Assembly: GCA_003554845.1 (NCBI GenBank)
Contig: PWHK01000020.1
Location: 6,895 to 70,894 of the forward strand
Origin: Candidatus Aenigmatarchaeota archaeon
GTDB lineage: Archaea > Aenigmatarchaeota > Aenigmatarchaeia > PWEA01
Direction of reading: 5' to 3'
Length of the DNA: 64,000 bases
Below are positions 27,544 through 48,002 of the stretch, piece by piece (the stretch's first letter is position 1; each line of letters opens with the position of its first letter). The notes below the pieces were generated by a model. That model ran no database searches, was not told where the DNA came from, and was given only the letters and a program-made list of their open reading frames with translations. Position numbers and translations under genes: made by a program.

Positions 27544-27684
27544 TACAAAAATTCAAACGGTGTGGTGGAACATCCCGGTGAAGGAGCCTCAGATGAAGAG
27601 TGGAGGGAGAAGTACAGGGAGTTCAAGGAAATCGAGAAAGAGGAACTAGAAAGGTCCTATGTAGGACTAAAAACAGAAAGGTGA
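27541..27684 (+). CDS. small ORF (47 aa) MYKNSNGVVEHPGEGASDEEWREKYREFKE ...
   Basis: Starts at the ATG of repeat copy A. Shares the HPGE ... EEW ... Y motif with the N-terminus of the 27096 ORF. Not in the supplied track because it is under 60 aa. Confidence 0.3.
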   Translation: MYKNSNGVVEHPGEGASDEEWREKYREFKEIEKEELERSYVGLKTER

Positions 27685-27689
27685 AAAAA

Positions 27690-28571
27690 ATGTCAAAGAA
27701 AAAGGTACTAGAGGCTTTGTCAAACGCCAACAAAGGAAATGCATACCTTGGACAAAGGCTTTCGGAAAACGTAGAAAGAATGGCAGTGGCCGAGATAAGC
27801 AAGGACGAGGCAGAGAAATTCAAAGAAAAAAGTCAGAAAGACGCAGCAGGGCTTGTAGATCAGATAGGCAGAGAACAGACCATTAGAGGAGACAAACTAG
27901 ATGGAGAAGGTTTTGCATCAGAAGGCGAAGAATATTTCAACAGGTTCAATCAATCAGACCTCGAAGGTCCAGCAGAGACTATTCTAGAAGAACTGGACAG
28001 GCTTATGGACAAGGCTGAAGAAGAAGACATAGAAATATTCGAAGAGTTGAAGGAGGATCTCAAAGAAAGATATACTACAAGCAGACTGATCTCAAACAAG
28101 TACGAAGATACACTGGAGAAGTACGACCAAGGACAGATAACCACAGGGGAGTTCTTTGATCAAATGGAAGAATACAAAGGAAGCACAGACAAAGAACTCG
28201 GAAAGGAAATTGGAAAGGCACTCATGAGATCGCTGGATGCAGGAGAGTACAAACGTCTTCTCGACAAGGCATTCATAGACGAAGAAAATGGCTACACAGA
28301 AGAACAGATGGAGGTCCTAGGAGGAATAAGAAACCTGTACAAGATAGGGGAAGAACTGGGAGTATACAATCTGGATAGTGACATAGAATCCTTTGAAGGC
28401 CAAAAGAACTGGATTTCATACGGCATTGGAAGTAGAAGTGGAAAAAGATGGACAGAAGGAGAGGAAGAATTTCTCAAAAAGAACTACGAAGACAAGTCGG
28501 TGGAAGACCTTGCGACTTTGATGGGAAGAACAGTAGGTGCCGTTGAAGCAAGATACGGATCCATGGAGTAA
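27690..28571 (+). CDS. hypothetical acidic K/E-rich protein
   Basis: In-frame ATG (MSKKKVLEAL) 6 nt after the small ORF stop. The listed ORF start at 27600 would overlap the small ORF. Confidence 0.45.
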   Translation: MSKKKVLEALSNANKGNAYLGQRLSENVERMAVAEISKDEAEKFKEKSQKDAAGLVDQIGREQTIRGDKLDGEGFASEGEEYFNRFNQSDLEGPAETILEELDRLMDKAEEEDIEIFEELKEDLKERYTTSRLISNKYEDTLEKYDQGQITTGEFFDQMEEYKGSTDKELGKEIGKALMRSLDAGEYKRLLDKAFIDEENGYTEEQMEVLGGIRNLYKIGEELGVYNLDSDIESFEGQKNWISYGIGSRSGKRWTEGEEEFLKKNYEDKSVEDLATLMGRTVGAVEARYGSME

Positions 28572-28588
28572 AGCAACCCTTCTTTTTC

Positions 28589-28664
28589 TTTTATTACTTT
28601 AGAGTTACGAACAACCCAAACCTTTAAATAGTAGGAATGTTAATTACTACTTGGTGACAAAATG
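28589..28664 (+). repeat. copy B of the duplicated promoter/5' cassette
   Basis: See copy A. Ends at the ATG of the 28662 ORF. Confidence 0.7.
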
Positions 28665-29114
28665 ACTAAAACAGAAGATGGCCTCATAAAAACATTGTAC
28701 AATAATACTAATTCTAAATATGGGGATTTCGATGACAACTACAACGTTTCTGACTTTCTCATGAATGTCGGAGCAGGACCAATAGGGTTTCTCCATGGTC
28801 TTTCCGGAGAAACCGAGAAGGTAGGGCTTGAGAAAATGTACGATGAAGGAAATGCTTCTCTTTACATGGACGAGAAAGCGGAGAAGGAATGGGGAGAAAT
28901 TGTAGATTCCATGACAGAAGAAATACTGGAGGAAGGTATGGATGAACTTACAAAACTATACAGAAACACAGAGGACAGTGGAATAAAGGAAAGGATATAT
29001 GATATAGTAGAAGAAGAGACAGGAGAGGCCAAGGATATTCTAGAGGAAGAGAAATCATATGATATTGACAACTACGAAGATACCAACGGACCCATCTGCG
29101 ATATAGACTACTGA
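28662..29114 (+). CDS. hypothetical acidic protein
   Basis: 150 aa ORF driven by promoter copy B. Confidence 0.45.
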   Translation: MTKTEDGLIKTLYNNTNSKYGDFDDNYNVSDFLMNVGAGPIGFLHGLSGETEKVGLEKMYDEGNASLYMDEKAEKEWGEIVDSMTEEILEEGMDELTKLYRNTEDSGIKERIYDIVEEETGEAKDILEEEKSYDIDNYEDTNGPICDIDY

Positions 29115-29126
29115 TCAGGTGATAAC

Positions 29127-30332
29127 ATGTCTAAAAAGAGTAAAACCTTTGGAGAAGATTTCAACTCTGTAGGGGAGGCTTTGGAGAGAGAAGGAAGGTT
29201 CTTGATGGCTCTTGATATGGCAAACTACGAAATGGAAGGCCTTGACTTTGACCTCCCCGGTGGATTCCTCAGGGAAGTTTACAGAGAAACCGAAGATACA
29301 CTCGATGAAATCAAAGACATCCAGTTCGAACGCGGAGACAGAGAATATCTGAAGTCTACAACAGCGGACAACGAAAGAGCATTTGACCTATACAACAAAG
29401 AAGTAATGGATAGAACAAGAAAGGTAGTTGAAGGAGAGGACCATCTCCTTCCCAAGAATGAAGTTTCAGATCTCTACAGTATTTTGGATAGGTCCATGAA
29501 CATTCAGAGAAAAAATCTGAGAAGCCACAGAAGGGCCAGGGATCTATATAGAAGAGGTCTTATGACGAGAAAGGAGTTTTTCAGGGAGATGGCAGGCAAG
29601 TCCACCCATAACGGAAAGGAAACCTTTGAAGAAGCAAAGAAGGGAATAGGTAAAAACATACTCCTCAAAACACATGCTCTATCAAAAAAACTCGACGAGA
29701 CCGACGAAAGAATCGAAGATGTTGAATCATATGTAGATGACCTAAAGAAGATAAGAGACAGACTTGGTATAGATAAAGACTACTCGGAAGTCATGTCGGG
29801 GATGTGGATGAACAAAGAAATAGAACGTAATGAAGATGGCCAAGTGGTTGGCTGGAAGTTGGATCTTCCAGAAGATGATGGAGAAAAAGAATACCATATA
29901 GAAAAATTTCTTTCCGAGGAGATGGAGCAGAAGTACGAGGAAGACCTCTCTGGAAAATTAAACTACAAAGACTTCGATAGTTTTTTATCAGAAGAACTGA
30001 ATACCGTTCCTGGAAAATACAGTTTCTCAACGATTCCAATGCACGGAGAAGCACTGGATATAATTTCGTATATGATAGACATAGATGAAGACGAGTGGAC
30101 AGAAAGCAGATCGGAAGAATATAAAAAGGGAATGCTGTACACAGAAAAGAATCTGGAAGATATAAAGAAGGGTCTCGAAGACAAAGAGGACGGGGAATAC
30201 AGAAACGAAAGGGTGGTCGGTGGACTGAAATGCTTGGAGGATGGTTCATACAAAAACTTCAAGGTAGAAGAACTGGAGGGTAGATACGGTCTATGGATGA
30301 ACTCCGAGGCATACGGAGAAGGCGAGGATTAG
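29127..30332 (+). CDS. hypothetical acidic protein
   Basis: 401 aa, E/K/D-rich. 12 nt after the previous stop. Confidence 0.45.
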   Translation: MSKKSKTFGEDFNSVGEALEREGRFLMALDMANYEMEGLDFDLPGGFLREVYRETEDTLDEIKDIQFERGDREYLKSTTADNERAFDLYNKEVMDRTRKVVEGEDHLLPKNEVSDLYSILDRSMNIQRKNLRSHRRARDLYRRGLMTRKEFFREMAGKSTHNGKETFEEAKKGIGKNILLKTHALSKKLDETDERIEDVESYVDDLKKIRDRLGIDKDYSEVMSGMWMNKEIERNEDGQVVGWKLDLPEDDGEKEYHIEKFLSEEMEQKYEEDLSGKLNYKDFDSFLSEELNTVPGKYSFSTIPMHGEALDIISYMIDIDEDEWTESRSEEYKKGMLYTEKNLEDIKKGLEDKEDGEYRNERVVGGLKCLEDGSYKNFKVEELEGRYGLWMNSEAYGEGED

Positions 30333-30383: not shown

Positions 30384-30944
30384 ATGCCAATAGAGATAAG
30401 CGAGGAACTTCTTTACGACCTGGTCTTCAGAGCAATACTAAAGGTTCCGGAATGTGGTCCAGATGGCGGATGGGGTTGCCTAACAGGAGAACCAACACAC
30501 GACCTCATATTTGCATTCTTTCTGCCCCATATAGTTCTATTTATATTTCTATTTGTCATAATGGGTGCCGCTACCCCCGGTTCGAATGGTAAGAAGGGTA
30601 TACAGGTACTGTTTTCCATAGGAGTATACATATTTCTAATATACACAGGGTACTATGGACTTCTGGCATCTTGGCTTGTGATATGGATGGCACTGACCGT
30701 TTTCATAGGACTGGCCTACTTTTTCATGGCCAAGATACTTCCAAGTCCTGATAAAACCGCCAAGATAGGAAAACACGTAGGTGGATATGTTAAAAAATCA
30801 TGGGACAGAGATAAGAAACTCAGGAAGATAGACAGAGACATCCAAGAAATAAATAACCTCATAAGAGAAAATCCGGGGAACACAAGACTTCCAAAGCTCC
30901 TGGCAGAGCTGAAGATGGAAAGAAACAAAATTCAATCCAGATGA
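30384..30944 (+). CDS. hypothetical membrane protein with basic coiled-coil tail
   Basis: 186 aa, 3-4 TM helices. Confidence 0.45.
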   Translation: MPIEISEELLYDLVFRAILKVPECGPDGGWGCLTGEPTHDLIFAFFLPHIVLFIFLFVIMGAATPGSNGKKGIQVLFSIGVYIFLIYTGYYGLLASWLVIWMALTVFIGLAYFFMAKILPSPDKTAKIGKHVGGYVKKSWDRDKKLRKIDRDIQEINNLIRENPGNTRLPKLLAELKMERNKIQSR

Positions 30945-30954: not shown

Positions 30955-31422
30955 ATGACAACAGTTGCACATATAATGGACGGCTCATTCCTGTTGCCCT
31001 TCCTTTTCACACTTGCGGTTGTCTACGGACTTCTCTCTATGATGGGAGACGAAAAGGAAGGTCTCTTTGGTAAAAACTCTGTAAACATGATAATAGCACT
31101 GGTTTTTGCCGTTTTTGCAGCCGGTTACGAACCCTTTGTAGTGTTCTTCTTCTCTTACTTCGGAATCATACTGTGGGCCTTCGTAGGACTTTTCTTTCTT
31201 GCCTTTTTCAAAAAGGTGCTGTCTACAGGTAAGAAGGACAAGAAGGAGAAGGCTATATACGCCGGTGTCATCCTGCTGGTTTTTGCAAGTATAGCAGGTC
31301 TAGGAACGATATATGCCCCTGAGTTCGAAATACCTGTCCTGGGAACACAGAACTTTGTAGTGGTATTAGGTCTTTTCTTAGTACTGTACGTGATCTACAA
31401 CACACTCACCATCGACGAGTAG
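30955..31422 (+). CDS. small polytopic membrane protein, paralog family member 1 (LPFLFTLAVVYGLLS)
   Basis: Shares the N-terminal LPWLL-T-FA-VYG-LSQ block with the next three genes. Confidence 0.5.
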   Translation: MTTVAHIMDGSFLLPFLFTLAVVYGLLSMMGDEKEGLFGKNSVNMIIALVFAVFAAGYEPFVVFFFSYFGIILWAFVGLFFLAFFKKVLSTGKKDKKEKAIYAGVILLVFASIAGLGTIYAPEFEIPVLGTQNFVVVLGLFLVLYVIYNTLTIDE

Positions 31423-31465
31423 TTGAAACTTTAAATAAGTAACACATAAACAATAAAGTGGTAAC

Positions 31466-31963
31466 ATGTCAGAAAGTCTCATAGGACAGATGATACAGAA
31501 TCTCGAAGGTCTTGGTTTTTTTGCATATCTTCTACCATGGCTTCTTACTCTTGCAATAGTTTTCGGTATACTGGAGCATTATGACATGCCTGAATCAACC
31601 TCGGCCAGAGGCGTAATAGCAATAGTTGCTGCCTTTACTGTGCTTCCTGTAGGTGGTCTAATAGCCCCGTTTCTAAAGGACATGGTAACAGGACTCGTGG
31701 CCATAGGTGTTGGAATACTTGTTGCAGTAATATTTATTGAGCTCCTTGGGTACAAGGTAAGCGACACACAGAACATATTCCTTAAGCATCCTATGAGCTT
31801 CGGAGTTATAATGATAATACTCGCTGTTATGGTTTTCGTCGGTGCAGGTGGAATGGAACTCATAGGAGTTTCCATAAACGTTACAAGTGAGCTCGTAACC
31901 CTACTGGCATTCCTTGCTGTAATATCACTTGGAGTATGGTTTATAGCTGCAAAGGAAGGGTAG
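31466..31963 (+). CDS. small polytopic membrane protein, paralog 2
   Basis: FFAYLLPWLLTLAIVFGILEHYDMPESTSARGVIAIV. Confidence 0.5.
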   Translation: MSESLIGQMIQNLEGLGFFAYLLPWLLTLAIVFGILEHYDMPESTSARGVIAIVAAFTVLPVGGLIAPFLKDMVTGLVAIGVGILVAVIFIELLGYKVSDTQNIFLKHPMSFGVIMIILAVMVFVGAGGMELIGVSINVTSELVTLLAFLAVISLGVWFIAAKEG

Positions 31964-32013
31964 GATATAAAAAGACTTAAAAAGATTAGGATAGAACAAT
32001 AGGTTGTGAAAAG

Positions 32014-32556
32014 ATGGAAGGAGTTGCAGTCGACTTTTTTGGCACAGGTGTAGCAGACGAGTTCTTCGTATATGCCCTTCCATGGCTTCTTGTCTTTGCT
32101 CTTGTCTACGGAATACTTTCACAGTTGGGCAAGGACGGTATGCCTAATAGCAACTCTACAAGGGCTGTTATATCCGTTGTACTTGCATTCTTCTCGCTTC
32201 TATTTGCACAGCCACTTATGATGTTCCTACAGGCTATAGGAGGAAGTGCAATAGTCATACTCACAGGATTTCTCTTCTTCTTCATACTTCTGGAGCTCAC
32301 AGGAACAGAAGGTGGTGCAATGGATTTTATAGGGGAACATCCAGGTAAGTTCGGATTGGTTCTTCTTGTAATAATAGTAACACTGTTTATTGGTTCGGGG
32401 GGTATAGAGATGATGGGACTTGATGGTATAACCCCGCCGCTGAACCCTGCCACGACATTTTTCCTTGTGGTAGTTGCAGTATCGATCTGGTGGATGGTCC
32501 ATGGAGGAAATGGAGAGGATAATAAAAACGAAACACCCGGAGAAGGACCACGATGA
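32014..32556 (+). CDS. small polytopic membrane protein, paralog 3
   Basis: FFVYALPWLLVFALVYGILSQLGKDGMPNSNSTRAVISVV. Confidence 0.5.
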   Translation: MEGVAVDFFGTGVADEFFVYALPWLLVFALVYGILSQLGKDGMPNSNSTRAVISVVLAFFSLLFAQPLMMFLQAIGGSAIVILTGFLFFFILLELTGTEGGAMDFIGEHPGKFGLVLLVIIVTLFIGSGGIEMMGLDGITPPLNPATTFFLVVVAVSIWWMVHGGNGEDNKNETPGEGPR

Positions 32557-33107
32557 TGACTGAAACCATTACAGGAATAGCCTTGATGGCACAAACAGGC
32601 CCCGTCGAAGAAATATCACAGTTTATAGGAATAGATTTCTTCTCGCTTGTACTTCCATGGCTCCTTACATTTGCAATAGTATACGGTGTATTGAGCCAGT
32701 TGGGTGGCAAAGGAAAGAGTGGAATGCCTGAAAACGACGCCGCAAGGGCTATAATAGGAATTGTAATGGCATTTATAATAGCCCCTGTTCTTTCACCGTA
32801 TGTTATACAACTTGCTGCACTATCTGCTGGTTTCATAGCACTGATAGCAGGCGTGCTTATACTTGTAATATTTGTCGAAGTAGCAGGATTCGACAAAGAG
32901 AAAGGAACGCACGGAGGAAAGTTCTTCGGAAAGTACTCGAGCATGACAGGACTTATAATTGCAATACTTGCTGTACTGGTATTCATTGGATCCGGGGCAC
33001 CCGAAGCACTCGGACTGAACCTTCCACCCTACATATCACAGAACTACCCGCTTCTGTTTTTCCTTGGATTCATGGTTATCATAGTATGGTGGATGGTCGA
33101 CGAATAG
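32553..33107 (+). CDS. small polytopic membrane protein, paralog 4
   Basis: FFSLVLPWLLTFAIVYGVLSQLGGKGKSGMPENDAARAIIGIV. Overlaps the previous gene by 4 nt. Confidence 0.5.
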   Translation: MMTETITGIALMAQTGPVEEISQFIGIDFFSLVLPWLLTFAIVYGVLSQLGGKGKSGMPENDAARAIIGIVMAFIIAPVLSPYVIQLAALSAGFIALIAGVLILVIFVEVAGFDKEKGTHGGKFFGKYSSMTGLIIAILAVLVFIGSGAPEALGLNLPPYISQNYPLLFFLGFMVIIVWWMVDE

Positions 33108-33116: not shown

Positions 33117-33887
33117 TTATTCTACAGATTCACGATGGCCGTCGCTGTATTCTTCATCATCGGATGATTCATTGTCCCTGCGTTTGTTCTTTGTTATCTT
33201 CGGGAGAAACTCCTTGAAGGCCTTTTCCAGTGAACTCACCCTCGATCCAATACCTTCAAGACGGGAAGAAACATCGTCTATATCATATTCTATTTCTTCT
33301 AAATTATCATCCTGCCTTTCCTTTATACTATCTATCTCATCTCTGAGATCCTCTATCTCAGCAACTATCTCTTCTCTCCCCTCCATAAACTTCTCAAGAT
33401 CCTTCTCCACATTAGACCACTTTTCATCTATTATCTCCTCTACAAGTATCTCGAGCTCTATCTCCTCCTCTTCGGTCATGAAAGCCTCGGTTTGTGGAGA
33501 CGGGGGAGTCCTGCTACCACGCTGTCCACCTCCCTGGTTTGAAAAAGACGAAGACGGCTGGGGAGCAACAAATGTATTTTCAGAAAAATCGTTGGCTGGC
33601 TCAGACCTATCAGCAGGAGCCTCTTCGTCAAGTTTCGGTGATCTGCGGGCAACCTGTGATTCACCAGTAGAACTTGAAACCTTGTTTTTGAGTACCTTGT
33701 TCATGCTCCTCTCTATCCTGTCGTTCGGATACCCCATACTCTTGAGTTCATTTATTATCTCCATCTCCGAATAGCCCTGGGAAGCAAGCCTCCTGACCTC
33801 TCCACTAGGCGATCCTAAACCAGAAGAATCAAAACTATCGTCCTTGTCACTTTCTCCGTCCTTACTCTTACCAAAACCAAGAACCAT
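33117..33887 (-). CDS. hypothetical acidic coiled-coil protein
   Basis: 256 aa. Ser-rich N-terminus and strongly acidic coiled-coil C-terminus. Confidence 0.4.
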   Translation of the reverse strand: MVLGFGKSKDGESDKDDSFDSSGLGSPSGEVRRLASQGYSEMEIINELKSMGYPNDRIERSMNKVLKNKVSSSTGESQVARRSPKLDEEAPADRSEPANDFSENTFVAPQPSSSFSNQGGGQRGSRTPPSPQTEAFMTEEEEIELEILVEEIIDEKWSNVEKDLEKFMEGREEIVAEIEDLRDEIDSIKERQDDNLEEIEYDIDDVSSRLEGIGSRVSSLEKAFKEFLPKITKNKRRDNESSDDEEYSDGHRESVE

Positions 33888-33892: not shown

Positions 33893-34294
33893 CTACTTCC
33901 TCTTTTGAAGCTCTTCTTTAATAAGTCTTTTCACTTCGTCCTCGGTAACAAACTCCGTTTCCATAGGTGAAAGAAGGTTTATGAAATTCTTTACCTCTTC
34001 GAACTCGGCCCTCCTGGGAACATCCTCAAGTCTATCCTTTATCTTTGGTATCTTGTTCTCTATCTTGAGTATTCTCATGAGAAGTTCATCCAGACCGTCC
34101 TTTACCTTTTCTATATCGTCTCTTTCCCTGTCCTCGAGATCCATTATTCTGTCCTCGAGGGATCTCAATGCAGTTTCCACAGACTTGTTTTCCCTTTCAA
34201 CGTCTCTCAGCCGCCTTGAATTGCCCTTGACCCTTTCGAGAAGCTCCCGTACAATTTCCCTGAGACCTTGATCATCCGCCTCACCAAAAGCCAT
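33893..34294 (-). CDS. hypothetical coiled-coil protein
   Basis: 133 aa. Heptad-like charged pattern. Confidence 0.4.
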   Translation of the reverse strand: MAFGEADDQGLREIVRELLERVKGNSRRLRDVERENKSVETALRSLEDRIMDLEDRERDDIEKVKDGLDELLMRILKIENKIPKIKDRLEDVPRRAEFEEVKNFINLLSPMETEFVTEDEVKRLIKEELQKRK

Positions 34295-34392: not shown

Positions 34393-36675
34393 GTGGTTAA
34401 AATGCCATGTGATTATGAATACAACGAAAAGGAAAACAAGATAGAAGTAAACTGTTCGGGCTGTATATACGGCAGTAGCGTTGCCGACTACGAAGAATGC
34501 ATGGCAAATACAATCGACAAGATTCTCAAAGTCAAGGGAGTAGAGTCGGTGGTATTCAAGAACAGCCGTGAGTACGAGTACCCCTACGAACAGACAAGAA
34601 TTCTAGTGGAAATAGCAGAGGTTCTGGAAGACATAATGAAAGACAAGGGACTGAGGAAGCTTGAACGTATGGATGCACCGGGCTGTAGCCAGTACTTCAG
34701 GGAAAAATACTCTGAGCTCCAGAACATTGTACTTGAGGAGTTCACTAAGGATCCCATAGGAACTTACATAAGGCTGAAGAGGAAGTTGAGGCACATCCGT
34801 ATTCAGATGAAAGAAAACAAGGGTGGTCCCCAGAACAACTGCAGAAAGAAATACCTCGAAGAGATACTCATACCGATAAAAGAAGAGATAGAAAACACAA
34901 GGATGATACAGGGTGTAAAGGACCAGCTCTCCGGATACCGGCCCGGGAGAAGGGATGCATACAGAGAACTTTTCTATCCTTCCGTAAGGCCAAACTTCAT
35001 GCGAACAAAGTATATGAGACAGGCCCCTGAAAGTGGAAAGAAGTTGGAGCACTACAACATAGGAAGTTCCGATGTGGACATATACGATCTCCCGGATGAA
35101 ACAAGACCCATGTACCACTTTTCTCCACCGGAGTTCAAACTCGAAGAGGAGGAGTACAAGATACTAGACGAGGCTCAGAGATACCTCAGTGAACACAGAC
35201 CACAGACAACAGAATTTGCCGACTCAAAGAGAACAAGAGAAGTATTTTCTTCTATAGGAAGAGATCTTGTAAAGGATATAGCAAGAAGGAAGAGTGTCGA
35301 TCTTGAAAACGAACAGGTAGAAAGACTAACATCTATACTCGGTAGATACACAGGAGGACTGGGCATACTCGAGGCCATACTCGAAGACGAAAGAATACAG
35401 GACATATACGTGAACTCTCCCATAGGCAGCAAGCCTATATTTGTAAACCATGGAGATTACGGCGAGTGCAAGACAAACATAATTCCAACACAGGACGATG
35501 CAGAAAGCTGGGCAACAAAGTTAAGGCTTTCAAGTGGAAGGCCACTGGACGAGGCCAATCCTGTCCTTGATTCATCTGTAGAAGTACCCGGTGGAAGTGC
35601 AAGAATTACAATAATAGCTCCGACGCTCTCTCCACAAGGAATGGGCTTTGCAATAAGAAGACACAGAGAGGACCCGTGGACATATCCCCTCTACCTGAAG
35701 CCCGATGTAGGCTACTTCAGTCCACTCTTCACCGGTCTGATGAGTTTTGTAATAGACGGTGGAAGAAGTTTTCTTATAGGAGGTGGCAGAGGATCGGGTA
35801 AGACTTCACTCCTTGGAGCTTCCCTCATGGAAATGAAAAAGGACTGGAGAATAATAACAAGCGAAGACACTCTAGAACTTCCTGTAAACAGACTCAGGGA
35901 GCTGGACTACGACGTACAGAACCTAAAATCAAGGTCTGTTATAACACAGGTCGAAACCGAACTTCCTGCATCCGAGGCAATAAGAACAGCCCTCCGTCTT
36001 GGTGACTCTGCTCTCATAATGGGTGAAGTCAGGTCAAAGGAAGCAAAGGCACTCTACGAAGCCATGCGTATAGGAGCCATGGCAAAGACTGTAGCAGGAA
36101 CCATACATGGTGAATCGGCATACGGTCTCTTCGACCGTGTTGTAAACGATCTCAACGTACCGAAGACATCGTTCAAGGCCACCGATCTAATTGTAATATG
36201 TAATAGGATAAAGAGCGCCTCAGGACTCCATGAAATGAGGAGGGTAACAAATGTGACAGAGGTCAGAAAACACTGGTCCGATGATCCAAGGGCAGAAGGA
36301 GGATTTGTTCCCCTAATGGAATATTCGGCAGAAGACGACGAACTAAAGCCTACAAATACACTCCTAAACGGCGAGTCTGAAATTCTCAATAGAATATCTT
36401 CCCAGGTAAAGGACTGGGCAGGAAGGTGGGACAGAGTCTGGGACAATATAGAACTCAGGGCTAAGGTCAAGGAGGCCGTAACGGACTATGCCCTAAAGAC
36501 AGGGAACGAAGAGATTATGGAAGCTCCCTTTGTTGTAAAGAGTAACAGTAAGTTCCGACTTACCATGGACGAAGTAAAGAATGAGATCGGGTATATAGAT
36601 CCTGACGAAACATTCGATAGATGGGAAAAATGGCTCAAGGAGCAGATAAAGACAGGTGAGTTCAAGAATGCCTAA
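34393..36675 (+). CDS. type II/IV secretion-system ATPase (FlaI/ArlI / GspE / TadA family) with long N-terminal extension
   Basis: Walker A GGGRGSGKTS, the following TSEDTLEL box, and Walker B ALIMGEVR, all in the C-terminal half of a 760 aa protein. GTG start. An ATG at 34402 is also possible. Confidence 0.8.
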   Translation: MVKMPCDYEYNEKENKIEVNCSGCIYGSSVADYEECMANTIDKILKVKGVESVVFKNSREYEYPYEQTRILVEIAEVLEDIMKDKGLRKLERMDAPGCSQYFREKYSELQNIVLEEFTKDPIGTYIRLKRKLRHIRIQMKENKGGPQNNCRKKYLEEILIPIKEEIENTRMIQGVKDQLSGYRPGRRDAYRELFYPSVRPNFMRTKYMRQAPESGKKLEHYNIGSSDVDIYDLPDETRPMYHFSPPEFKLEEEEYKILDEAQRYLSEHRPQTTEFADSKRTREVFSSIGRDLVKDIARRKSVDLENEQVERLTSILGRYTGGLGILEAILEDERIQDIYVNSPIGSKPIFVNHGDYGECKTNIIPTQDDAESWATKLRLSSGRPLDEANPVLDSSVEVPGGSARITIIAPTLSPQGMGFAIRRHREDPWTYPLYLKPDVGYFSPLFTGLMSFVIDGGRSFLIGGGRGSGKTSLLGASLMEMKKDWRIITSEDTLELPVNRLRELDYDVQNLKSRSVITQVETELPASEAIRTALRLGDSALIMGEVRSKEAKALYEAMRIGAMAKTVAGTIHGESAYGLFDRVVNDLNVPKTSFKATDLIVICNRIKSASGLHEMRRVTNVTEVRKHWSDDPRAEGGFVPLMEYSAEDDELKPTNTLLNGESEILNRISSQVKDWAGRWDRVWDNIELRAKVKEAVTDYALKTGNEEIMEAPFVVKSNSKFRLTMDEVKNEIGYIDPDETFDRWEKWLKEQIKTGEFKNA

Positions 36676-38731
36676 GGACCCGAAAAAGGGGGATGGTTAT
36701 CCCAAGGAAGAAGGTCTGAGGATGCCTGAAAACAAGGAGAGGAGTTTCAAATCGAGGGAATATGAGACATTTCTAGAAGAGGAAAGAGAGCAGAAAAAAC
36801 TTTCGATATATGAAAAAATGTGCAATATTTCTGAGAATATAATCGTTGTGGAACCAGACGAGGAAAAGAAGAAGGAGATAGAACGATCAATAAACATGAC
36901 GTATATGAACATCACTCCGGCGGGCGCCTATTCCTTTGCTATCTTATTCGGAACCGCCATCTTTGTTATTTCGATAATGCTGATGATACTCGGTATTGCT
37001 TCGATGGTATTCGGCATTCTCATGTTCGTACTGGGTGCCGTTTCTATATATCTTCTTTCAGAATATCCCAACTCACAGGCCAGGTTATTCCGTGTAAAGG
37101 CAGCCGATCAGATAATGCTTGCTATAATCTATATGGTTATCTACATGAGAACTTCCCCTAATCTCGAAGGAGCCATAAAGTTTACTGCTAAGCATCTTGG
37201 TGAACCACTATCCATGGACTTCAAAAAACTACTATGGGATGTAGAAACAGGTAACTATATATCGATGAGAGAAGCCCTTGGAGACTATCTCGAAAAGTGG
37301 GAAGACAACAAGGCATTTGTAGAATCAGTCCAGATAATTCAGGACTCCATGCAACAGACAGGAGAAAAAAGGAAGAGAATGCTCGACGAAGCAATAAACA
37401 CTATGATGACAGGATCCAGGGAGATGATGAAAAACTACTCGAATAAACTCGAGCTTCCTGTGCTCGTAATACATGCCCTTGGTATAATGCTTCCTATCAT
37501 GGTCCTAATAATGTTTCCTATAATAATGCTGATGTTAGAAGAAACCATAAGACCTGCGTTCCTTATAATAGGATACAACATTGTCCTGCCTCTCATAATA
37601 TACCTAACAGGAAAAAGAACTCTGGAGTACAGGCCCATGGGATTTTCGGAGCCGGATATATCAAAACATCCTGATCACATTCCCTCTGGAATGATAAACA
37701 TCGGAGGTAAGGAGATAAAGATATGGCCTATATCTGTTCTTCTGTCGGTTCCTGTAATACTTATAGGAATATACCTGGTCAATTTCTATGGAGGTGGGGA
37801 CATATCAACCCAACTCTACACATCTCTATTCATAACCCTTGGAATAGCCCTGGGCCCTTCGACCTACTTCTATCTGGACTCAAGTGCCAAGCTGAAGCTA
37901 AGAAAGGAGGTGAAGGACATAGAAGATGAGTTTTCAGAATCTCTTTTCTCTCTGGGCAACATACTCAATCTCGGCAAGCCCATGGAAAGAGCTTTGGAAG
38001 AAACTGCAGTAAAAAATAAAGACATGGACATATCAAATATGTTCGAAATAGTTGTAAACAATATCAAAAAAGGTGGCATGAACATAAGAAGAGCCTTTTT
38101 TGACAATAAGTATGGGGCTGTGTGGCATTATCCATCGAATCTCATAATATCCGTCATGAAAATAGTTATGGATGCAGCAGAGAAGGGCTCGGATGTAGTT
38201 TCCAGATCAACTATATCCATATCAAAGTATCTACAGCAGCTCGATGAGATAGAAGAAGATCTTAAGAACATGCTCTCGTCTGAAACCACTTCCATGCAGT
38301 TTCTGGGAACATTTTTGGGGCCCTTCGTAGCAGGAGTTTCTGTGGCCATGGCTGCTATAATGATATCAATATTCCACGGCGTGGGTGGTTCATTGGATGC
38401 ACTGGCAGGACCAAGGACTTCACCAGGAGTAGGTGGAATCGGCGGGATGGGGCTCAATGAAGGTCTGGTAGGTGGATGGGGCTCGGCGGAAAATATGATA
38501 CCTATACCATGGATACAGGTAGTCGTAGGTCTCTACGCTATTCAGACATCCTACCTTCTATCGATGCTGACATCCGGTATAGAAAACGGACCGGGTGATG
38601 AGATCAAAAAAAGACGTAATGCAGCCATAATGATTTTGATAGGTGTAGTAGTTTACGGTCTTTCGATAGCCGTTGTTTGGGAGATCTTCGGAGGACAGAT
38701 TTCAGGACTTCTGTCTGCTACTATAAACTAA
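36656..38731 (+). CDS. polytopic membrane platform protein (FlaJ/TadC-like, T2SS-F-like) - tentative
   Basis: 691 aa with about 9-10 TM helices and cytoplasmic loops. Overlaps the ATPase gene by 20 nt. Assignment rests on genomic context and topology. Confidence 0.5.
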   Translation: MSSRMPKDPKKGDGYPKEEGLRMPENKERSFKSREYETFLEEEREQKKLSIYEKMCNISENIIVVEPDEEKKKEIERSINMTYMNITPAGAYSFAILFGTAIFVISIMLMILGIASMVFGILMFVLGAVSIYLLSEYPNSQARLFRVKAADQIMLAIIYMVIYMRTSPNLEGAIKFTAKHLGEPLSMDFKKLLWDVETGNYISMREALGDYLEKWEDNKAFVESVQIIQDSMQQTGEKRKRMLDEAINTMMTGSREMMKNYSNKLELPVLVIHALGIMLPIMVLIMFPIIMLMLEETIRPAFLIIGYNIVLPLIIYLTGKRTLEYRPMGFSEPDISKHPDHIPSGMINIGGKEIKIWPISVLLSVPVILIGIYLVNFYGGGDISTQLYTSLFITLGIALGPSTYFYLDSSAKLKLRKEVKDIEDEFSESLFSLGNILNLGKPMERALEETAVKNKDMDISNMFEIVVNNIKKGGMNIRRAFFDNKYGAVWHYPSNLIISVMKIVMDAAEKGSDVVSRSTISISKYLQQLDEIEEDLKNMLSSETTSMQFLGTFLGPFVAGVSVAMAAIMISIFHGVGGSLDALAGPRTSPGVGGIGGMGLNEGLVGGWGSAENMIPIPWIQVVVGLYAIQTSYLLSMLTSGIENGPGDEIKKRRNAAIMILIGVVVYGLSIAVVWEIFGGQISGLLSATIN

Positions 38732-38779: not shown

Positions 38780-40009
38780 ATGAAACCTCTAAACGACCAG
38801 AAAGGATCTTCTGTCCTTATTATAATAGTAGTCGGGGTAATAATTATACTCATAGCAGGCAGCCTTGCGACTGTGATGATGAGTCGTATTGCCCAGGACG
38901 TGCTTGGACAAAGTGTCATGTGTGATACTTTTTGTGAGATGCAGTCCACTGTAGAAGAAGTGACAACACTGGATTTTATGCCAAGTCATGGTCCAACCGG
39001 TACATTCATTTTTACACTGGGGTTGGGACCGGCGGGATTAGCTGGATCCAAAGTATGGAACTGGATAGTAGGAGAAGTAGGAAGAGATAGAGAAGATGTT
39101 GCAAGGGATCTGGCAATAGATTACCTAATCCGACCCGAAGGCATGGGTTGTTACTGTGGCGTGTCCGATGCCAGAGGAAAGTATATACACTTTCTGACAC
39201 CCGGTCCTAGCTCAACCAGGCCACATGTGGCCGAGTTCCACCTAACAGAACAGACTCCGGAAAAACATCTCCAAGAAGAGATAATAGATACAGATGGAAA
39301 CACTATATTCAAACACGGTGGTTATGGCCAAAAAAGTAACTGTGAAGATGAACTTAGTAAGATAGATGAACTTGACAACGGTGAGTACTTGGCCGAACTC
39401 GATATATATCCCGGATGTATAATACTTTCAACCACCGATGACAACTGTGCAATATGGGCATTCGATGAAACCTTCGCAATAACCAACGAAGAAGGAAAGT
39501 CCATAAGGGAACAGGCCGAAGAACAGGATAAAATCATATTCGCTAGCACGATAAGGTCCGATGACCCCGTAAACAGCCTGGGTATTGCAGAAGAGATAGA
39601 GGCAAGTGGCAGACACGACTCCCAGAGGATGCTCCTCGAGCATTACGAAGAGGGTATACACCCCTTCCAGGTTTACTTACCTGTGGTCTGTAAATCAGAG
39701 GAAAGAACTGAAAGACGTGTCCAGGATCCACTTGACAGGGCATGTAGAGAACAGTGCCATGACGGAAACACACTTCTATGGGCTTCCAGGTGTTTCGAAG
39801 GACCAGAAGATGCCGGAGAAATCTACCGTCCTCTGGAGGAAGATTTTCTTCCGGAAGACTATGATGAAACCAGGGACCTGTGCCCTGTGGAAGACGATGA
39901 AAATGAAGAGGAAGAAAGTAACGACGAAGATCGTGGTTATCCCTTCTGCCTCTGTAACACTCCCCGAAGTTATTCATGGGAACTAGATGAAGAATACACA
40001 GAGATATGA
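38780..40009 (+). CDS. class III (prepilin-like) signal peptide protein, large cysteine-rich paralog 1
   Basis: MKPLNDQKG|SSVLIIIVVGVIIIL. Shares GCYCGV, HDSQRMLL, PVVCKS, RACREQC and PFCLC ... YSWE motifs with 40033 and 41282. Confidence 0.55.
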   Translation: MKPLNDQKGSSVLIIIVVGVIIILIAGSLATVMMSRIAQDVLGQSVMCDTFCEMQSTVEEVTTLDFMPSHGPTGTFIFTLGLGPAGLAGSKVWNWIVGEVGRDREDVARDLAIDYLIRPEGMGCYCGVSDARGKYIHFLTPGPSSTRPHVAEFHLTEQTPEKHLQEEIIDTDGNTIFKHGGYGQKSNCEDELSKIDELDNGEYLAELDIYPGCIILSTTDDNCAIWAFDETFAITNEEGKSIREQAEEQDKIIFASTIRSDDPVNSLGIAEEIEASGRHDSQRMLLEHYEEGIHPFQVYLPVVCKSEERTERRVQDPLDRACREQCHDGNTLLWASRCFEGPEDAGEIYRPLEEDFLPEDYDETRDLCPVEDDENEEEESNDEDRGYPFCLCNTPRSYSWELDEEYTEI

Positions 40010-40032
40010 TATCTTGAATTTTTGTGATGTAA

Positions 40033-41136
40033 ATGATTGACGAAAAAGGCAGTTCATTTCTATTCATAATAGTTGTAGCTATAATCTTATCTCTGATCGT
40101 TGGTTCTTTAATTACAGGTGCATTTGCTATGACAGTAAGGACTGTGGTCGGAACCGATCTTTCCTGTCCGACCTTCTGTGCAGTTCAAGCAGACATAGAG
40201 GAATACAGCATGGCAGATATAATGCTACCATCCGTACTACCATTCATAGAGGAAAGCTCGGATGGAATTGCCCATAAAGTAGCAGACTGGATAATACAGC
40301 CAGAAGGACTCGGTTGTTACTGTGGTGTCAAAGAAAGAAGTGGAAGATACATTCATTTTCACACAGGTCCTCCTGGAGAAAGGTCAATAAGAGAACTTCA
40401 CTTGACGGATCAGGACCCACACATACATCTCGACTATCATGTCGGGGATTCCGATGGAAACACATTATTCGACCACAGCTTCGACAAGAGCAACTGCGAG
40501 GAAGACATAAACAGTTTAAAAGAGGTACAGTACTACCAAGACGTCGGCTGTGTAATCGTGGTTAACTCCGACGGAGGATACTGCTCTATACATGTAATAG
40601 GAGAAGGTTCGGTTATAGAAAACAACATAGGTGAAAGTATACAGGATCAGGTTGAAATCAGGGAAACATTAACGACAAACTACGACGAAAACGATCCTAT
40701 TTCGTTTTTTGAAATCGGCGACAGATACAACGTACCTCGATTTGTACATGAAGAAGGAGATATTCTAACATACACGATAGGAGGCCAGCCCTACCAGCAC
40801 GACTCCCAGAGGATGCTCCTCCGGGACTACGACGAATACCTAGGAGCTAAGTTCGCTCTCTATGCTCCTGTTGTCTGCAGAACCTCGGTAGCAGAAGGAC
40901 AGGAAGTTCAGACAAAACTTGATGAAAAATGCAGAGAACAGTGCAAAGAAGACAGGAAGATTTTTCTGTCTTCTGCATGCCATGATATTCCCAGGGAAGG
41001 ATACAAACCGCTACGTGATGAACACCACGAAGAAGACACTTTCTGTGAAAAGGAGGGTAAAGGTCCGTACTGCAGATGTATGCACGAGAAACGGTACTAC
41101 TGGGAGGTAGACGAGGATTATTCGAGAGAAAACTAA
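40033..41136 (+). CDS. class III signal peptide protein, large cysteine-rich paralog 2
   Basis: MIDEKG|SSFLFIIVVAIIL. Same conserved Cys framework. Confidence 0.55.
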   Translation: MIDEKGSSFLFIIVVAIILSLIVGSLITGAFAMTVRTVVGTDLSCPTFCAVQADIEEYSMADIMLPSVLPFIEESSDGIAHKVADWIIQPEGLGCYCGVKERSGRYIHFHTGPPGERSIRELHLTDQDPHIHLDYHVGDSDGNTLFDHSFDKSNCEEDINSLKEVQYYQDVGCVIVVNSDGGYCSIHVIGEGSVIENNIGESIQDQVEIRETLTTNYDENDPISFFEIGDRYNVPRFVHEEGDILTYTIGGQPYQHDSQRMLLRDYDEYLGAKFALYAPVVCRTSVAEGQEVQTKLDEKCREQCKEDRKIFLSSACHDIPREGYKPLRDEHHEEDTFCEKEGKGPYCRCMHEKRYYWEVDEDYSREN

Positions 41137-41168
41137 AAAATAAAAAACAAAATATATTGAATGATACC

Positions 41169-41282
41169 ATGGAAGCAAATATTTCGGTCCTGCTCTGGGT
41201 GATGGTAGCTTTTGTCCTATTTGCACTTTTGGTTGTATTTACTGCCATGTTCTTTGCCGATACATTTGGGATTTTGATATAA
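41169..41282 (+). CDS. small hydrophobic ORF (37 aa, MEANISVLLWVMVAFVLFALLVVF ...)
   Basis: Single TM helix. Its TAA stop overlaps the ATG of the next gene (TAATG). Confidence 0.3.
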   Translation: MEANISVLLWVMVAFVLFALLVVFTAMFFADTFGILI

Positions 41283-42571
41283 TGAAAAACAACATGATCA
41301 ATCAAAAGGGAGCATCGGTAGTTGCCCTGTTTGTAATAATAATTATAATGGTGAGTGCATGGGTTTTAATACAAAGTATAGGCCCCATAACCAGAGCTTC
41401 TATGGAAACCGAGGTATCATGTCCCCTCTTCTGTGATATACATTCAGGCGTGGAGGAATACTCTAGATGGGCATGGTGGCCTGGGTGGCTAGGAGGAAGT
41501 GTAAGCTGGTCCGATATATTTACGAACGAACTCAGAAAAAACATGGTGGAGCCTAAATCAATGGGCTGTTACTGTGGTGTCCAGGAAGAAAGGGGGAAGT
41601 TTATTCACTTCCAGGGAACTACCAGCAGTCTATATGAATTCCACATGACCGATCAGGATCCACTAATGCATCTTCGTATGAAAGCCGATCCGTTTGATCA
41701 CAGACCATCTGATGAATCAACGGTTGAATCATGCCGGTTAGTTGTAGAAAACTACGGAGAACAGTTCAGCCCACCTGTATATGATCCAACCGATCTTCAC
41801 AAGGTTCAGGGATGTATAATTGTTTCTGAATCACCAGGCTGTGCAGTATGGGTATTTGGAGAAGGTTTTTCGATAAGAAGAGATTCAGAGAATTCTATCT
41901 GGGAACAGGCACAGGAACAGGAAAGAGACATAGAAGCCTTTTCCATAGATAGAGGAGAAGACCCTGTTTCAGATCTAAATATAGGCGAAACTATACATGT
42001 CTCGAGTTCAAAGGACCCCTCTCAGAGAATGCTCCTCCGGGAATATGAAAGCGGCGACCGAGATTTCAATCTCTCTACATCCGTGGTATGTAAAAGCATT
42101 GAAACAGCTAAAACAATGCCCACAGATCAACTGGACAGGGCTTGCAACGAATACTGTTCGGACAAGGGTCTCTTCTTTCTAAACTCTGCTTGTCTACAAG
42201 AAAAAAGAAGGGGTTACAATACTCTCCCTGAAGAGTACATAGAACAAGAGAGGAGTGATCTCTGCCCTGAAACAGGAGAACTCCCCTTCTGCCTCTGTGC
42301 TGGTGAAAAGGAATACTACTGGGAAACATACTGGGAAGATTTTTATACAATAACGGTAGAAACCCAGGGTAGTGGAACCGTTGATATCAACCCCGATCTA
42401 GACGAATACTACAGAGGTCAGGGAGTATTACTGGAAGCAGAGGCGGACAACGAATGGGAGTTCAGCCACTGGGAAGGCAACTATCCCACTGGACAAAAAG
42501 AAGATTCGGAGATAACGATAACAGTAGATGGTAACATGGTGCTTAGTGCTGTATTTGAATCAGAGCATTGA
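41282..42571 (+). CDS. class III signal peptide protein, large cysteine-rich paralog 3 (extra C-terminal domain)
   Basis: MKNNMINQKG|ASVVALFVIIII. Carries GCYCGV, PSQRMLL, VVCKS, RACNEYC and PFCLC ... YYWE motifs. Confidence 0.55.
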   Translation: MKNNMINQKGASVVALFVIIIIMVSAWVLIQSIGPITRASMETEVSCPLFCDIHSGVEEYSRWAWWPGWLGGSVSWSDIFTNELRKNMVEPKSMGCYCGVQEERGKFIHFQGTTSSLYEFHMTDQDPLMHLRMKADPFDHRPSDESTVESCRLVVENYGEQFSPPVYDPTDLHKVQGCIIVSESPGCAVWVFGEGFSIRRDSENSIWEQAQEQERDIEAFSIDRGEDPVSDLNIGETIHVSSSKDPSQRMLLREYESGDRDFNLSTSVVCKSIETAKTMPTDQLDRACNEYCSDKGLFFLNSACLQEKRRGYNTLPEEYIEQERSDLCPETGELPFCLCAGEKEYYWETYWEDFYTITVETQGSGTVDINPDLDEYYRGQGVLLEAEADNEWEFSHWEGNYPTGQKEDSEITITVDGNMVLSAVFESEH

Positions 42572-42633
42572 GATCCCTCATTAGATTAAAACTTATAACA
42601 CATAGCCAACATGTATAATATGAGGATGTTTGC

Positions 42634-42816
42634 ATGGAAAGAAATTCTAAATATATCTTTTCCAGTGGTGAGATAAGCATACAGGTCGTAATCATAATAA
42701 TACTCATGTTGATAGGACTCACTGTTGTCCTTATAATATCATCCGGTGTCGGTGGTTTTGGAACAAATGTATCATCGAATATAATGGGATATCTAGCAGA
42801 TGCTATAGGTGCATGA
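42634..42816 (+). CDS. small pilin-like protein (60 aa)
   Basis: Short polar N-terminus then a long hydrophobic helix. Confidence 0.35.
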   Translation: MERNSKYIFSSGEISIQVVIIIILMLIGLTVVLIISSGVGGFGTNVSSNIMGYLADAIGA

Positions 42817-42818
42817 AA

Positions 42819-42971
42819 ATGGAATACGATAAAAAAGGTTTTATAAGTATAATTATGCTTCTGATCATAGCACTTGTGGCACTATCGGTGGGTCTTATGC
42901 TTATACATGCCTTTTGGGGAGGCGGAGGAGGCTTGTTGAATCTACTCATTCAGAGACTCCAAATGGTATAG
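42819..42971 (+). CDS. small pilin-like ORF (about 50 aa, MEYDKKG|FISIIMLLIIALV)
   Basis: Translated by hand. KKG-hydrophobic class III-like start. Not in the supplied track (under 60 aa). Confidence 0.3.
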   Translation: MEYDKKGFISIIMLLIIALVALSVGLMLIHAFWGGGGGLLNLLIQRLQMV

Positions 42972-42979
42972 GTGAAAAA

Positions 42980-43126
42980 ATGTCTATATTCAACGATACG
43001 CTTATAATTTTTCAAAAAAACACAAAGATAATATTCGCCTTAATAGTTTTTGCCCTTCTTATAGGTATACTTTACTACACAATAAATCCTCTGATAGACA
43101 CGTTAATGGGGGCTATAGGTTATTGA
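42980..43126 (+). CDS. small membrane ORF (48 aa)
   Basis: MSIFNDTLIIFQKNTKIIFALIVFALLIGILYY ... Confidence 0.3.
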   Translation: MSIFNDTLIIFQKNTKIIFALIVFALLIGILYYTINPLIDTLMGAIGY

Positions 43127-43127
43127 T

Positions 43128-43844
43128 ATGAACATAATCAACAAGAAGGGTTCAAGATCGCAGAGCGAGTTCATATTTCTTGCAATAAAGGCAGTAATAG
43201 GTATCTTGGCTATAGGTGTTATTGCATTGAGTGTCAGGGGCATGGAGACAGGCTGTAGTACACATGACGAAAATCCATCGGCATGTATAAGCAATACAGA
43301 ATGCAGACCTGCGGTCAGAAGAGAAAAAAGCACATTTTCTATACCTGTTGATATTATGCGGTCTGTAGATATAGTCTATCATACAGAAATAACCGGCGAT
43401 ATAGAATGTCGGGATTCCATAAGGACTCCCAACAACAGATACCACGCCGCAGAGGATGCTCAGTGTGTCTGTCCTGTTGGGTGGGAAGTAATTTTAGACA
43501 GAGAAGATCAGTACTATGGAGTCTGTAGGCTACCAGGAACCAACAACTATCACCCATGTGAGTATCCACCCGACGGCGAACGACAGGAAACAGAATTCAA
43601 AGACATGTGTGAAGATGGAGATAGATACCACGGAGAAGTCTGGATCGACGGAACAGATGAAGAAGCTCCAAATATGTGCTGCGATGATGGAGATACAAAA
43701 GAGTGTGACTCCGATAACATAGATGAAAAATGTGGTGATCTGGTCTGTATTGAAATAGAGGTTGAAGTCGAAGACGGAGAAGAGGAAGAAATCACTTTCT
43801 GGATAGATGAAGAGAGTGTACCTGATATAGAATACATAATTTAA
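43128..43844 (+). CDS. class III signal peptide protein, cysteine-rich mid-size paralog A
   Basis: MNIINKKG|S ... GCSTHDENPSACISNTECRPAV and YHGEVW ... CCDDGDTKEC shared with 43872. Confidence 0.5.
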   Translation: MNIINKKGSRSQSEFIFLAIKAVIGILAIGVIALSVRGMETGCSTHDENPSACISNTECRPAVRREKSTFSIPVDIMRSVDIVYHTEITGDIECRDSIRTPNNRYHAAEDAQCVCPVGWEVILDREDQYYGVCRLPGTNNYHPCEYPPDGERQETEFKDMCEDGDRYHGEVWIDGTDEEAPNMCCDDGDTKECDSDNIDEKCGDLVCIEIEVEVEDGEEEEITFWIDEESVPDIEYII

Positions 43845-43871
43845 AATACACAAAATAAAAAATGAAGCAGA

Positions 43872-44528
43872 ATGTTTTCAAAAAAAGGTACTGCTAAATC
43901 ACAGGAAGAAACACTTTGGTTTATAATCAAGATAGCTATAGTAATCATAGGATTTGTAATTCTAATTGTTGCTTTTCTTAGGATGGAGGCAGGCTGTAGC
44001 AGGCATGATGAAAATCCATCGGCATGTATAAGCGACGAGAGCTGTAGACCTGCAGTTAAAGAGGTGGACTCAGGATGGGACATATATGCATCACTGTATG
44101 GATCATACCGAACGGAAGTGGTGGGTAAGATAGAGTGCAAAGAATCCGTAAGAAAACCTGATACAAGACACCACGCAGCCCATGATGGAAAATGTATATG
44201 CCCGGGTTTCTGGGAAGAAATTATAGACAGAAATCATGACTACTTCGGTGTATGCTATACTGATTACAATGGAGAAGAAATGTACTATCCTTGTCAGTAT
44301 GGCCTAAATGTTCAGGTCGAGGAAATAAAGGACAGTTGCGAAAGCGTTGAAAAATACCACGGAGAAGTATGGGGCTCCGGTTGGAATACCCCCGATAGAT
44401 GTTGCGATGACGGCGAAGTAAAGAAATGTAATATACTCAACAGTGGTGAAACTTGCGCAGACTATACATGCAGATCTGGCCCAGCCAAGCATCAGGTTGT
44501 CGATATCCAGTACTACTGGCAGCCATAA
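43872..44528 (+). CDS. class III signal peptide protein, cysteine-rich mid-size paralog B
   Basis: MFSKKG|T ... GCSRHDENPSACISDESCRPAV and YHGEVW ... CCDDGEVKKC. Confidence 0.5.
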   Translation: MFSKKGTAKSQEETLWFIIKIAIVIIGFVILIVAFLRMEAGCSRHDENPSACISDESCRPAVKEVDSGWDIYASLYGSYRTEVVGKIECKESVRKPDTRHHAAHDGKCICPGFWEEIIDRNHDYFGVCYTDYNGEEMYYPCQYGLNVQVEEIKDSCESVEKYHGEVWGSGWNTPDRCCDDGEVKKCNILNSGETCADYTCRSGPAKHQVVDIQYYWQP

Positions 44529-44572
44529 ACTGCAGTGCACCTTTCAAAAAGATTTAAACAAACACAACAAAG

Positions 44573-44995: not shown

Positions 44996-44997
44996 TT

Positions 44998-46420: not shown

Positions 46421-46427
46421 TGATAAA

Positions 46428-46985: not shown

Positions 46986-47020
46986 ATTTTATAAGAAAGG
47001 GAGGGTCATTTAACATTAAG

Positions 47021-48001: not shown

Positions 48002-48002
48002 A

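Follow-up and report, generated by a model that had tools for sequence, protein, structure and literature searches.

An unnamed family of tandem five-helix membrane proteins in DPANN archaea and its possible role beside a type IV filament ATPase

We describe a tandem array of four genes for small membrane proteins, W1 to W4, found at positions 30955-33107 of a 64,000-nucleotide stretch of DNA from a Candidatus Aenigmatarchaeota archaeon (GenBank assembly GCA_003554845.1, contig PWHK01000020.1, positions 6,895 to 70,894 of the forward strand; this whole stretch is referred to as the window). Across the loci that we compared, the family represented by these genes is usually encoded close to a pair of coiled-coil genes and to the genes for a FlaI/TadA-type secretion ATPase and a TadC-like platform protein. 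This conserved neighborhood, which is seen across phyla and irrespective of whether loci are anchored on the family or on the ATPase, means that a link to a pilus is supported, although unproven. Based on these observations, we tentatively propose that W1-W4, together with the product of the preceding gene (W0), assemble into a hetero-oligomeric scaffold in the membrane that belongs to a DPANN-specific type IV filament machine, a proposal that we rate a little short of an even chance.

Genomic neighborhood of the array

In the window, the plus-strand array faces two minus-strand genes encoding coiled-coil proteins, CC256 (33117-33887), which is cytoplasmic and convergent with W4, and the 133-amino acid (aa) CC133 (33893-34294). 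The latter is divergent from the gene for a 760-aa ATPase (34393-36675, plus strand), from which it is separated by 99 nucleotides (nt), and the ATPase gene is followed by that for a 691-aa TadC/FlaJ-like polytopic platform protein (36656-38731, plus strand). A first-pass annotation of the window, made from the sequence, had suggested a functional link between the array and the pilus ATPase and had proposed checking other genomes for co-occurrence of the family with FlaI-like genes. Adjacency was found from both directions. Among 59 family-anchored loci (GTDB species-representative loci with at least 4.5 kb of downstream sequence), 47 have the ATPase and the TadC-like gene within 4.5 kb. Among 41 ATPase-anchored loci from metagenomes (those with at least 4 kb upstream), 30 carry one to four family genes, located 1.0-3.6 kb from the ATPase start. 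The coiled-coil pair is present in 36 of these 41 loci, and at least one gene of the pair occurs in every one of the 30 that are family-positive.

This module, arranged as family array, two coiled-coil genes, ATPase of about 750 aa and TadC-like gene, is shared by Aenigmatarchaeota, Pacearchaeota/Nanoarchaeia and a third lineage that bears no label. What surrounds it varies: TP_methylase-DUF357 and acidic-protein genes lie upstream in Aenigmatarchaeota, a Hef helicase/ERCC4 gene and a PRC-barrel gene in Pace/Woese-type loci, and rpL15e in the third lineage. A core that is kept while its outer flanks differ, with the coiled-coil pair in between, is what would be expected of functional coupling rather than of passive synteny. 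Gene orientation within the module is also rearranged occasionally. In three loci (L104, L107 and L110), three family genes lie on the opposite strand, where they follow CC133-CC256 immediately and in the same direction, separated by 4-54 nt, and the CC133-CC256-family order is likewise co-directional in L061 and L074. Adjacency that is kept through rearrangement is better evidence of functional coupling than shared operon ancestry. Taken together, the family displays the recurrent adjacency to ATPase and TadC genes by which accessory proteins of type IV filaments are recognized (Makarova et al. 2016).

Several observations weigh against a role in the filament machine. No partner was found nearby in the available sequence of 12 of the 59 family-anchored and 11 of the 41 ATPase-anchored loci (20-27%), and neither more sensitive hidden Markov model (HMM) searches nor a hydropathy screen for small open reading frames (ORFs) with multiple transmembrane (TM) helices detected hidden members in the 11 ATPase-only loci. 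The complete 833-kb chromosome CP070662.1 has W0 and four paralogs followed by a cysteinyl-tRNA synthetase gene, and L092 retains one copy next to rpL15e, without an ATPase gene inside 10 kb. In most loci, the window included, the array converges on the coiled-coil genes and lies outside the ATPase operon; the window's array is a transcription unit separate from the ATPase, with the W4 stop 9 nt from the convergent CC256 stop. Finally, a weak but recurrent similarity to DUF2070, a family with no known pilus link (see below), could mean a different ancestral role. The functional link suggested by the first-pass annotation is thus partly supported, insofar as the neighborhood recurs in three lineages, but it does not extend to co-transcription in the window.

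These observations allow another explanation, namely that the array encodes an independent membrane complex, possibly including the coiled-coil pair, with a non-pilus job such as envelope or membrane organization or cell division, and that its adjacency to the ATPase was simply inherited along with the gene order of compact DPANN genomes. A separate transcription unit and the unlinked loci, among them a complete chromosome, would fit such a complex, and so would the fact that the array, with or without W0, stays intact where no ATPase is nearby. The PRC-barrel gene directly upstream in Pace/Woese-type loci points the same way, since CdvA and CdpB, which act in archaeal cell division, are built on the PRC-barrel fold. 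However, inherited adjacency accounts poorly for a core of family, coiled-coil and ATPase genes that was kept in three lineages despite different outer flanks, for its survival through strand inversions, and for the coiled-coil genes found in all 30 family-positive ATPase loci. We therefore regard an independent complex as possible but rather unlikely. A link to cell division through CdpA or PRC-barrel proteins was also considered, and no direct support for it was obtained.

The W1-W4 family

ORF calls confirmed that the array consists of four same-strand genes of 155-184 aa, as first described: W1 (30955-31422, 155 aa), W2 (31466-31963, 165 aa), W3 (32014-32556, 180 aa) and W4 (32553-33107, 184 aa), all on the plus strand. 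The 4-nt overlap that had been noted between two of the genes is that of the W4 start with the W3 stop. Public annotations contain W0 to W4 with exactly identical sequences, in each case without a name, on a contig of 76.6 kb. Over their full length, W2, W3 and W4 share 34-39% identity (BLASTP E-values of 5e-18 to 3e-29), and W1, the most diverged, is more remote from the other three (1e-8 to 4e-4). The family HMM recognizes all four with E-values of 5e-32 to 1.5e-65, the top match being W2 (1.5e-65). W1-W4 are true paralogs whose similarity is far above chance, and the common N-terminal block on which the first-pass annotation had grouped them, FFxYxLPWLLTFAIVYGILSQLG, is indeed the best-conserved stretch of the family.

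A word-indexed search with W1-W4 retrieved 129 proteins, all unnamed or "hypothetical", of which the labelled ones belong to Candidatus Aenigmatarchaeota. An exhaustive HMM search of 1.84 billion representatives gave 2459 clusters (defined at 50% identity) at E ≤1e-3 and 906 at E ≤1e-10; among the matches listed, lengths are mostly 155-209 aa, with a few shorter and apparently partial sequences. A profile built from the most distant members retrieved proteins labelled Pacearchaeota, Nanoarchaeia and Nanoarchaeota. The GTDB scan yielded 80 loci, mostly in Aenigmatarchaeota metagenome-assembled genomes, with a few labelled Nanobdellati, Nanoarchaeota or Micrarchaeota. The family is therefore large, and all of its labelled members belong to DPANN archaea.

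Arrays contain two genes in nine loci, three in 27 and four in 22, and a single copy is found in one lineage. The order of the copies is conserved. The first gene is of the "position-1" ortholog type, to which W1 belongs, in 34 of 37 three-gene and 24 of 28 four-gene arrays, and the second is of the "position-2" type represented by W2 in 30 of 37 and 26 of 28, respectively. Such conserved order indicates that the duplications are ancient and that the copies are not interchangeable, and ordered ancient paralogs are the pattern expected for distinct subunits of one complex.

About four TM helices had initially been assigned to these proteins; an AlphaFold2 (AF2) model, hydropathy and counts of Lys and Arg residues all indicate five. 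The AF2 model of W2, built with 101 homologs, has a mean predicted local distance difference test (pLDDT) score of 77.8, with 93-95 for TM1-TM3 and a weaker C-terminal half. Across 264 members, Lys and Arg are enriched in loop 1-2, loop 3-4 and the C-terminus, and are sparse at the N-terminus, in turn 2-3 and in loop 4-5, a distribution that implies an N-out/C-in topology. Variants with a longer N-terminus carry a cleavable-looking, signal-peptide-like segment there, which fits an external N-terminus. The well-conserved positions (W2 numbering) are L23, P24, W25, L26, A30, V32, Y/F33, G34, L36, I51, A56, F57, G95, F124 and G129, all of them apolar or Gly/Pro. No conserved Asp, Glu, His, Lys or Arg was found within the membrane, nor any conserved polar residue in a TM helix. 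This pattern argues for a structural role, and against the family being enzymes, among them proteases, or forming an ion path.

The gene preceding the array

W0 (30384-30944, plus strand) is an ORF for a 186-aa membrane protein that ends 10 nt upstream of the array. In its product, a short N-terminal segment bearing a conserved CxxxxxWGC pair precedes three TM helices, as judged by hydropathy, and a long K/E-rich cytoplasmic C-terminal helix. In the AF2 model, helices span residues 37-63, 69-87, 93-118, 122-162 and 168-185. The overall pLDDT is only 59.7, with 80-89 for the C-terminal helices; the model is poor because a word-indexed search with W0 alone gave just three proteins. W0 had been described as a fifth, unrelated membrane gene, and the family HMM does not detect it. 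Profile comparison revises this view. With hhalign, W0 aligns to the family over 76 columns with a probability of 54% (E 1.3e-4) and with TM1-TM3 in register, the TM1 segment F-F-L-P-H-I-V-L-F-I-F-L being placed against the family's L-P-W-L-L-T-F-A-I-V-Y-G, while controls (reversed sequence or profile, and the TadC-like family) gave probabilities of at most 4%. W0 is thus better seen as a probable fifth paralog, diverged far from W1-W4, than as an unrelated gene.

Of 74 loci that could be evaluated, at least 44 have W0 immediately before the array, and this is an undercount, since genes with overlapping starts were counted as missing. Where a lineage lacks W0, the array opens with an unmistakable family member that carries a cytoplasmic helical C-terminal extension of about 100 aa; these long first-position variants also have the signal-peptide-like segment mentioned above. 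In Pace/Woese-type loci, the W0 position of Aenigmatarchaeota is occupied by the PRC-barrel (PF05239) gene, which encodes about 95 aa and lies directly upstream of two family genes (L007 8777-9052, L008 9093-9422, L090 8189-8467 and L091 9122-9409).

Database searches and candidate identities

The first-pass annotation had called the family unrecognized, and every search agreed. Scans of W0 and W1-W4 against Pfam, NCBIfam, PHROGs and PADLOC gave nothing above threshold, a PDB profile search with the family returned no match, and a Foldseek comparison of the AF2 model with the PDB found no relative (best E 4.4). Homologs that bear a name are called only "hypothetical protein", and a cluster look-up of distant members provided no names. 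The family also goes unmentioned in an Aenigmarchaeota genomics paper that names FlaG, FlaI and FlaJ (PMC8407114).

The sole recurring similarity is a sub-threshold one to DUF2070 (PF09843). Matches are collinear and fall at about positions 27-179 of the 561-position profile, i.e., its N-terminal membrane region. In the Pfam scan they were seen for three of the four window paralogs (E 0.06-0.9). At E ≤0.01, seven of 70 diverse members (best 2.1e-6) and four of 25 further members matched; of six additional members searched with a cut-off of E 0.1, three did so (two at about 0.006 and one at 0.021). The family consensus gave E 3.8e-4. Reported scores of 8-19 bits stay below the 30-bit gathering cut-off of DUF2070, and so these matches are a possible lead towards remote domain homology and not an assignment to the family. 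It could be argued from the constant location of the matches on the profile that W proteins are stand-alone homologs of the DUF2070 N-terminal membrane domain, with an unknown housekeeping function in the membrane, an idea that does not exclude the other readings. However, not one reported score reaches the cut-off, and DUF2663, TgpA_N and other polytopic families match about as weakly. Literature searches on DUF2070, PF09843 and COG3356 found nothing functional, and a domain without known function does not compete with a role in a pilus. As a separate account of the array, we consider this one quite improbable.

Polytopic, multi-copy membrane proteins might serve as a channel for small solutes, as an ion-conducting stator or as a transporter, and one Joint Genome Institute (JGI) record calls a homolog an "MnhB subunit", but the absence of conserved charged or polar residues from the TM helices, of any transporter, MnhB or rhodopsin match in the Pfam searches (a match to a known transporter family was one outcome that the first-pass annotation had named as contrary evidence) and of any relative in the Foldseek-PDB search makes such a function highly implausible. 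The JGI labels themselves, MnhB and bacteriorhodopsin on two homologs (P0281 and P0325), have no corresponding Pfam match at E-values up to 0.1, and the precomputed Pfam column of these records is empty.

Identities drawn from the known parts of type IV filament systems were likewise rejected. Type IV pilins with class III signal peptides are not consistent with acidic N-termini, no KG site, five TM helices and no soluble domain. Prepilin peptidases (Peptidase A24: FlaK/PibD/EppA) were discarded as there is no conserved Asp, the G-[AS]-G-G following TM4 comes without Asp, and no Peptidase_A24 match was obtained. A TadC/FlaJ/GspF platform identity lacks a Pfam T2SSF match, and hhalign assigned the family a probability of 0.3% against the TadC family of the locus. 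Comparisons of the family with the TadC, ATPase and CC256 families of the locus by hhalign indicated no relation.

The accompanying pilus-like locus

CC256 begins with a hydrophobic/basic segment, which is followed by a UBA/RecX-like three-helix domain, a linker rich in P, Q and E, and a coiled coil at the C-terminus; Pfam matches to UBA and RecX_HTH1 are weak, and the architecture is conserved across lineages. Its orthologs have the N-terminal consensus MMVLFFGKKK, and their coiled coil terminates in IGSLEKAFKEFLP. The N-terminal hydrophobic/basic stretch may serve to target the protein to the membrane. In a PDB profile search, CC256 retrieved only generic coiled-coil noise.

The window's ATPase matches Pfam T2SSE (E 7.7e-14) and NCBIfam FlaI (E 3.5e-40, below the cut-off). 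Aenigmatarchaeota and Pace/Woese-type loci share 42-54% identity in this protein, with many invariant columns over its full length, including an N-terminal region of about 290 residues. In four loci (L033 12208-15984, L038 12388-16119, L068 7916-11770 and L072 12395-16138) the ATPase ORF is about 1250 aa long instead of about 750, which suggests an intein or other large insertion. The longest-ORF sequences of the ATPase, CC133 and CC256 have no exact copy in the public protein collection, unlike those of the five membrane proteins, and their annotated starts probably differ from the first in-frame start. The window's TadC-like protein by itself gives a weak match to Pfam T2SSF; a consensus of 48 orthologs matches at E 8.7e-12, in two stretches. 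Searches for archaellin, FlaF, FlaG and FlaH domains found none, and the locus is therefore considered pilus-like and not an archaellum.

Downstream lies a run of at least 12 plus-strand genes (38780-49060) whose translations have class-III (KG-hydrophobic) prepilin-like N-termini. At 38780-42571, three paralogous Cys-rich proteins of 367-429 aa with such N-termini have the motifs MGCYCGV, HLTDQDP, SQRMLL and VVCK in common, and the third has a Flg_new_2/InlB B-repeat domain at its end (E 1.2e-8). They are followed by three ORFs of 52-70 aa (42634-43126) that comprise little beyond a prepilin-like N-terminus and one hydrophobic helix; judged by this layout, they may be unusually short major pilins. 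Comparable genes of 34-56 aa follow TadC in L005, L090 and L091. Paralogs of 238 and 218 aa with prepilin-like N-termini (43128-44528) have no Pfam match and share a Cys-rich module, GCSxHDENPSACIS...CRPAV. A 326-aa protein with a prepilin-like N-terminus (47021-48001) contains Peptidase_M26_N (E 1.7e-8) and GLUG repeats and may be a pilus-tip adhesin.

On the other side, three Glu/Asp-rich acidic proteins of 323, 150 and 401 aa are encoded upstream of W0 (27600-30332), with no Pfam match. The first-pass annotation had placed the array between these genes and the ATPase; they are indeed present, but comparable unannotated genes occur in L001 and L003 and not in Pace/Woese-type loci. They are thus a matter of Aenigmatarchaeota synteny and lie outside the conserved module.

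Comparison with known systems and proposed role

Lineage-specific additions are common in archaeal type IV pilus loci, in the form of membrane proteins and of cytoplasmic coiled-coil proteins whose role is unknown (Makarova, Koonin and Albers 2016; PMC4858521). They include the two extra membrane proteins of clade-1 Epd-like loci, arCOG07264/07329 of the Sulfolobus bindosome, arCOG10497/10500 of Thermoproteales and the coiled-coil arCOG07564 of subclade 4F (PMC4858521). W0/W1-W4 and their coiled-coil genes therefore have precedent. Like the W family, these accessory proteins are defined by their position beside a FlaI/VirB11-type ATPase and a TadC/FlaJ platform, and they are uncharacterized, lineage-restricted and accompanied by a cytoplasmic coiled-coil partner. 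The W family differs in being a tandem set of one to four ordered five-TM paralogs that is DPANN-wide and usually forms a separate, convergent unit; the likeness seen here is one of position.

We envisage that W0 and W1-W4 would be non-redundant subunits of one hetero-oligomeric polytopic membrane complex. The conserved outer-leaflet segment G-F-F-x-Y-x-L-P-W/F-L-L-x-F-A-x-V-Y/F-G-x-L would be the likely contact surface. On the cytoplasmic side, the K-rich loops and the long C-terminal helix of W0 (or, in other lineages, of the array's first protein, which corresponds to it) may engage CC133/CC256, which would in turn sit beside the hexameric ATPase of about 750 aa and the TadC-like platform. 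Such a complex would act in filament assembly as a scaffold, collar or anchor, and neither as an enzyme nor as an ion path.

In this role, the W complex would resemble PilM/PilN/PilO of type IVa pili, GspL/GspM of type II secretion systems, ArlX and ArlC/D/E, as a membrane-anchored scaffold that joins platform and ATPase through cytoplasmic coiled-coil or helical parts; the TM helices and coiled-coil tail of W0 recall the TM-plus-coiled-coil layout of ArlX. In contrast, these known scaffold proteins are bitopic: they cross the membrane with one TM helix and carry soluble domains of ferredoxin-like or coiled-coil type, whereas W proteins have five TM helices and almost no soluble mass. No homology between the W family and PilMNO, GspLM, ArlX or ArlCDE was detected, and the likeness is in role rather than ancestry. 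TadC/FlaJ/GspF proteins (T2SSF) share with W proteins a polytopic nature and the same neighborhood, but W proteins do not have the cytoplasmic T2SSF helical bundle. As for DUF2070, which is predicted to be an archaeal membrane protein and has a profile about 560 positions long, the sub-threshold match spans the whole five-TM unit of the W family, and W proteins lack the remaining 380 or so positions.

A broader proposal, which we offer with distinctly less assurance than the scaffold itself, is that W0, the five-TM paralogs and CC133/CC256 represent an unrecognized core module of a DPANN-specific type IV filament machine, in which a polytopic hetero-oligomeric collar replaces the bitopic scaffolds of the PilMNO/ArlX type, and which could be part of the apparatus by which these episymbionts attach to host cells or exchange material with them.

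Conclusions

Most DPANN archaea are uncultured episymbionts. Among the structures that might mediate contact with a host, their surface filaments rank as prime candidates. The machinery of these filaments has so far been annotated merely as FlaI/FlaJ plus hypotheticals. What is new here is a large unnamed family of membrane proteins and a conserved three-part module made up of the array, the coiled-coil pair and the ATPase/TadC genes. The module supplies concrete targets for further study and a basis for a new Pfam or arCOG family entry, and it possibly provides the first functional context for the DUF2070 membrane domain. Even if the link to the filament genes were one of synteny only, this study would still describe a DPANN-wide orphan family. 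If the link holds, the family can be given a testable position within machinery that may bring these archaea into contact with their hosts.

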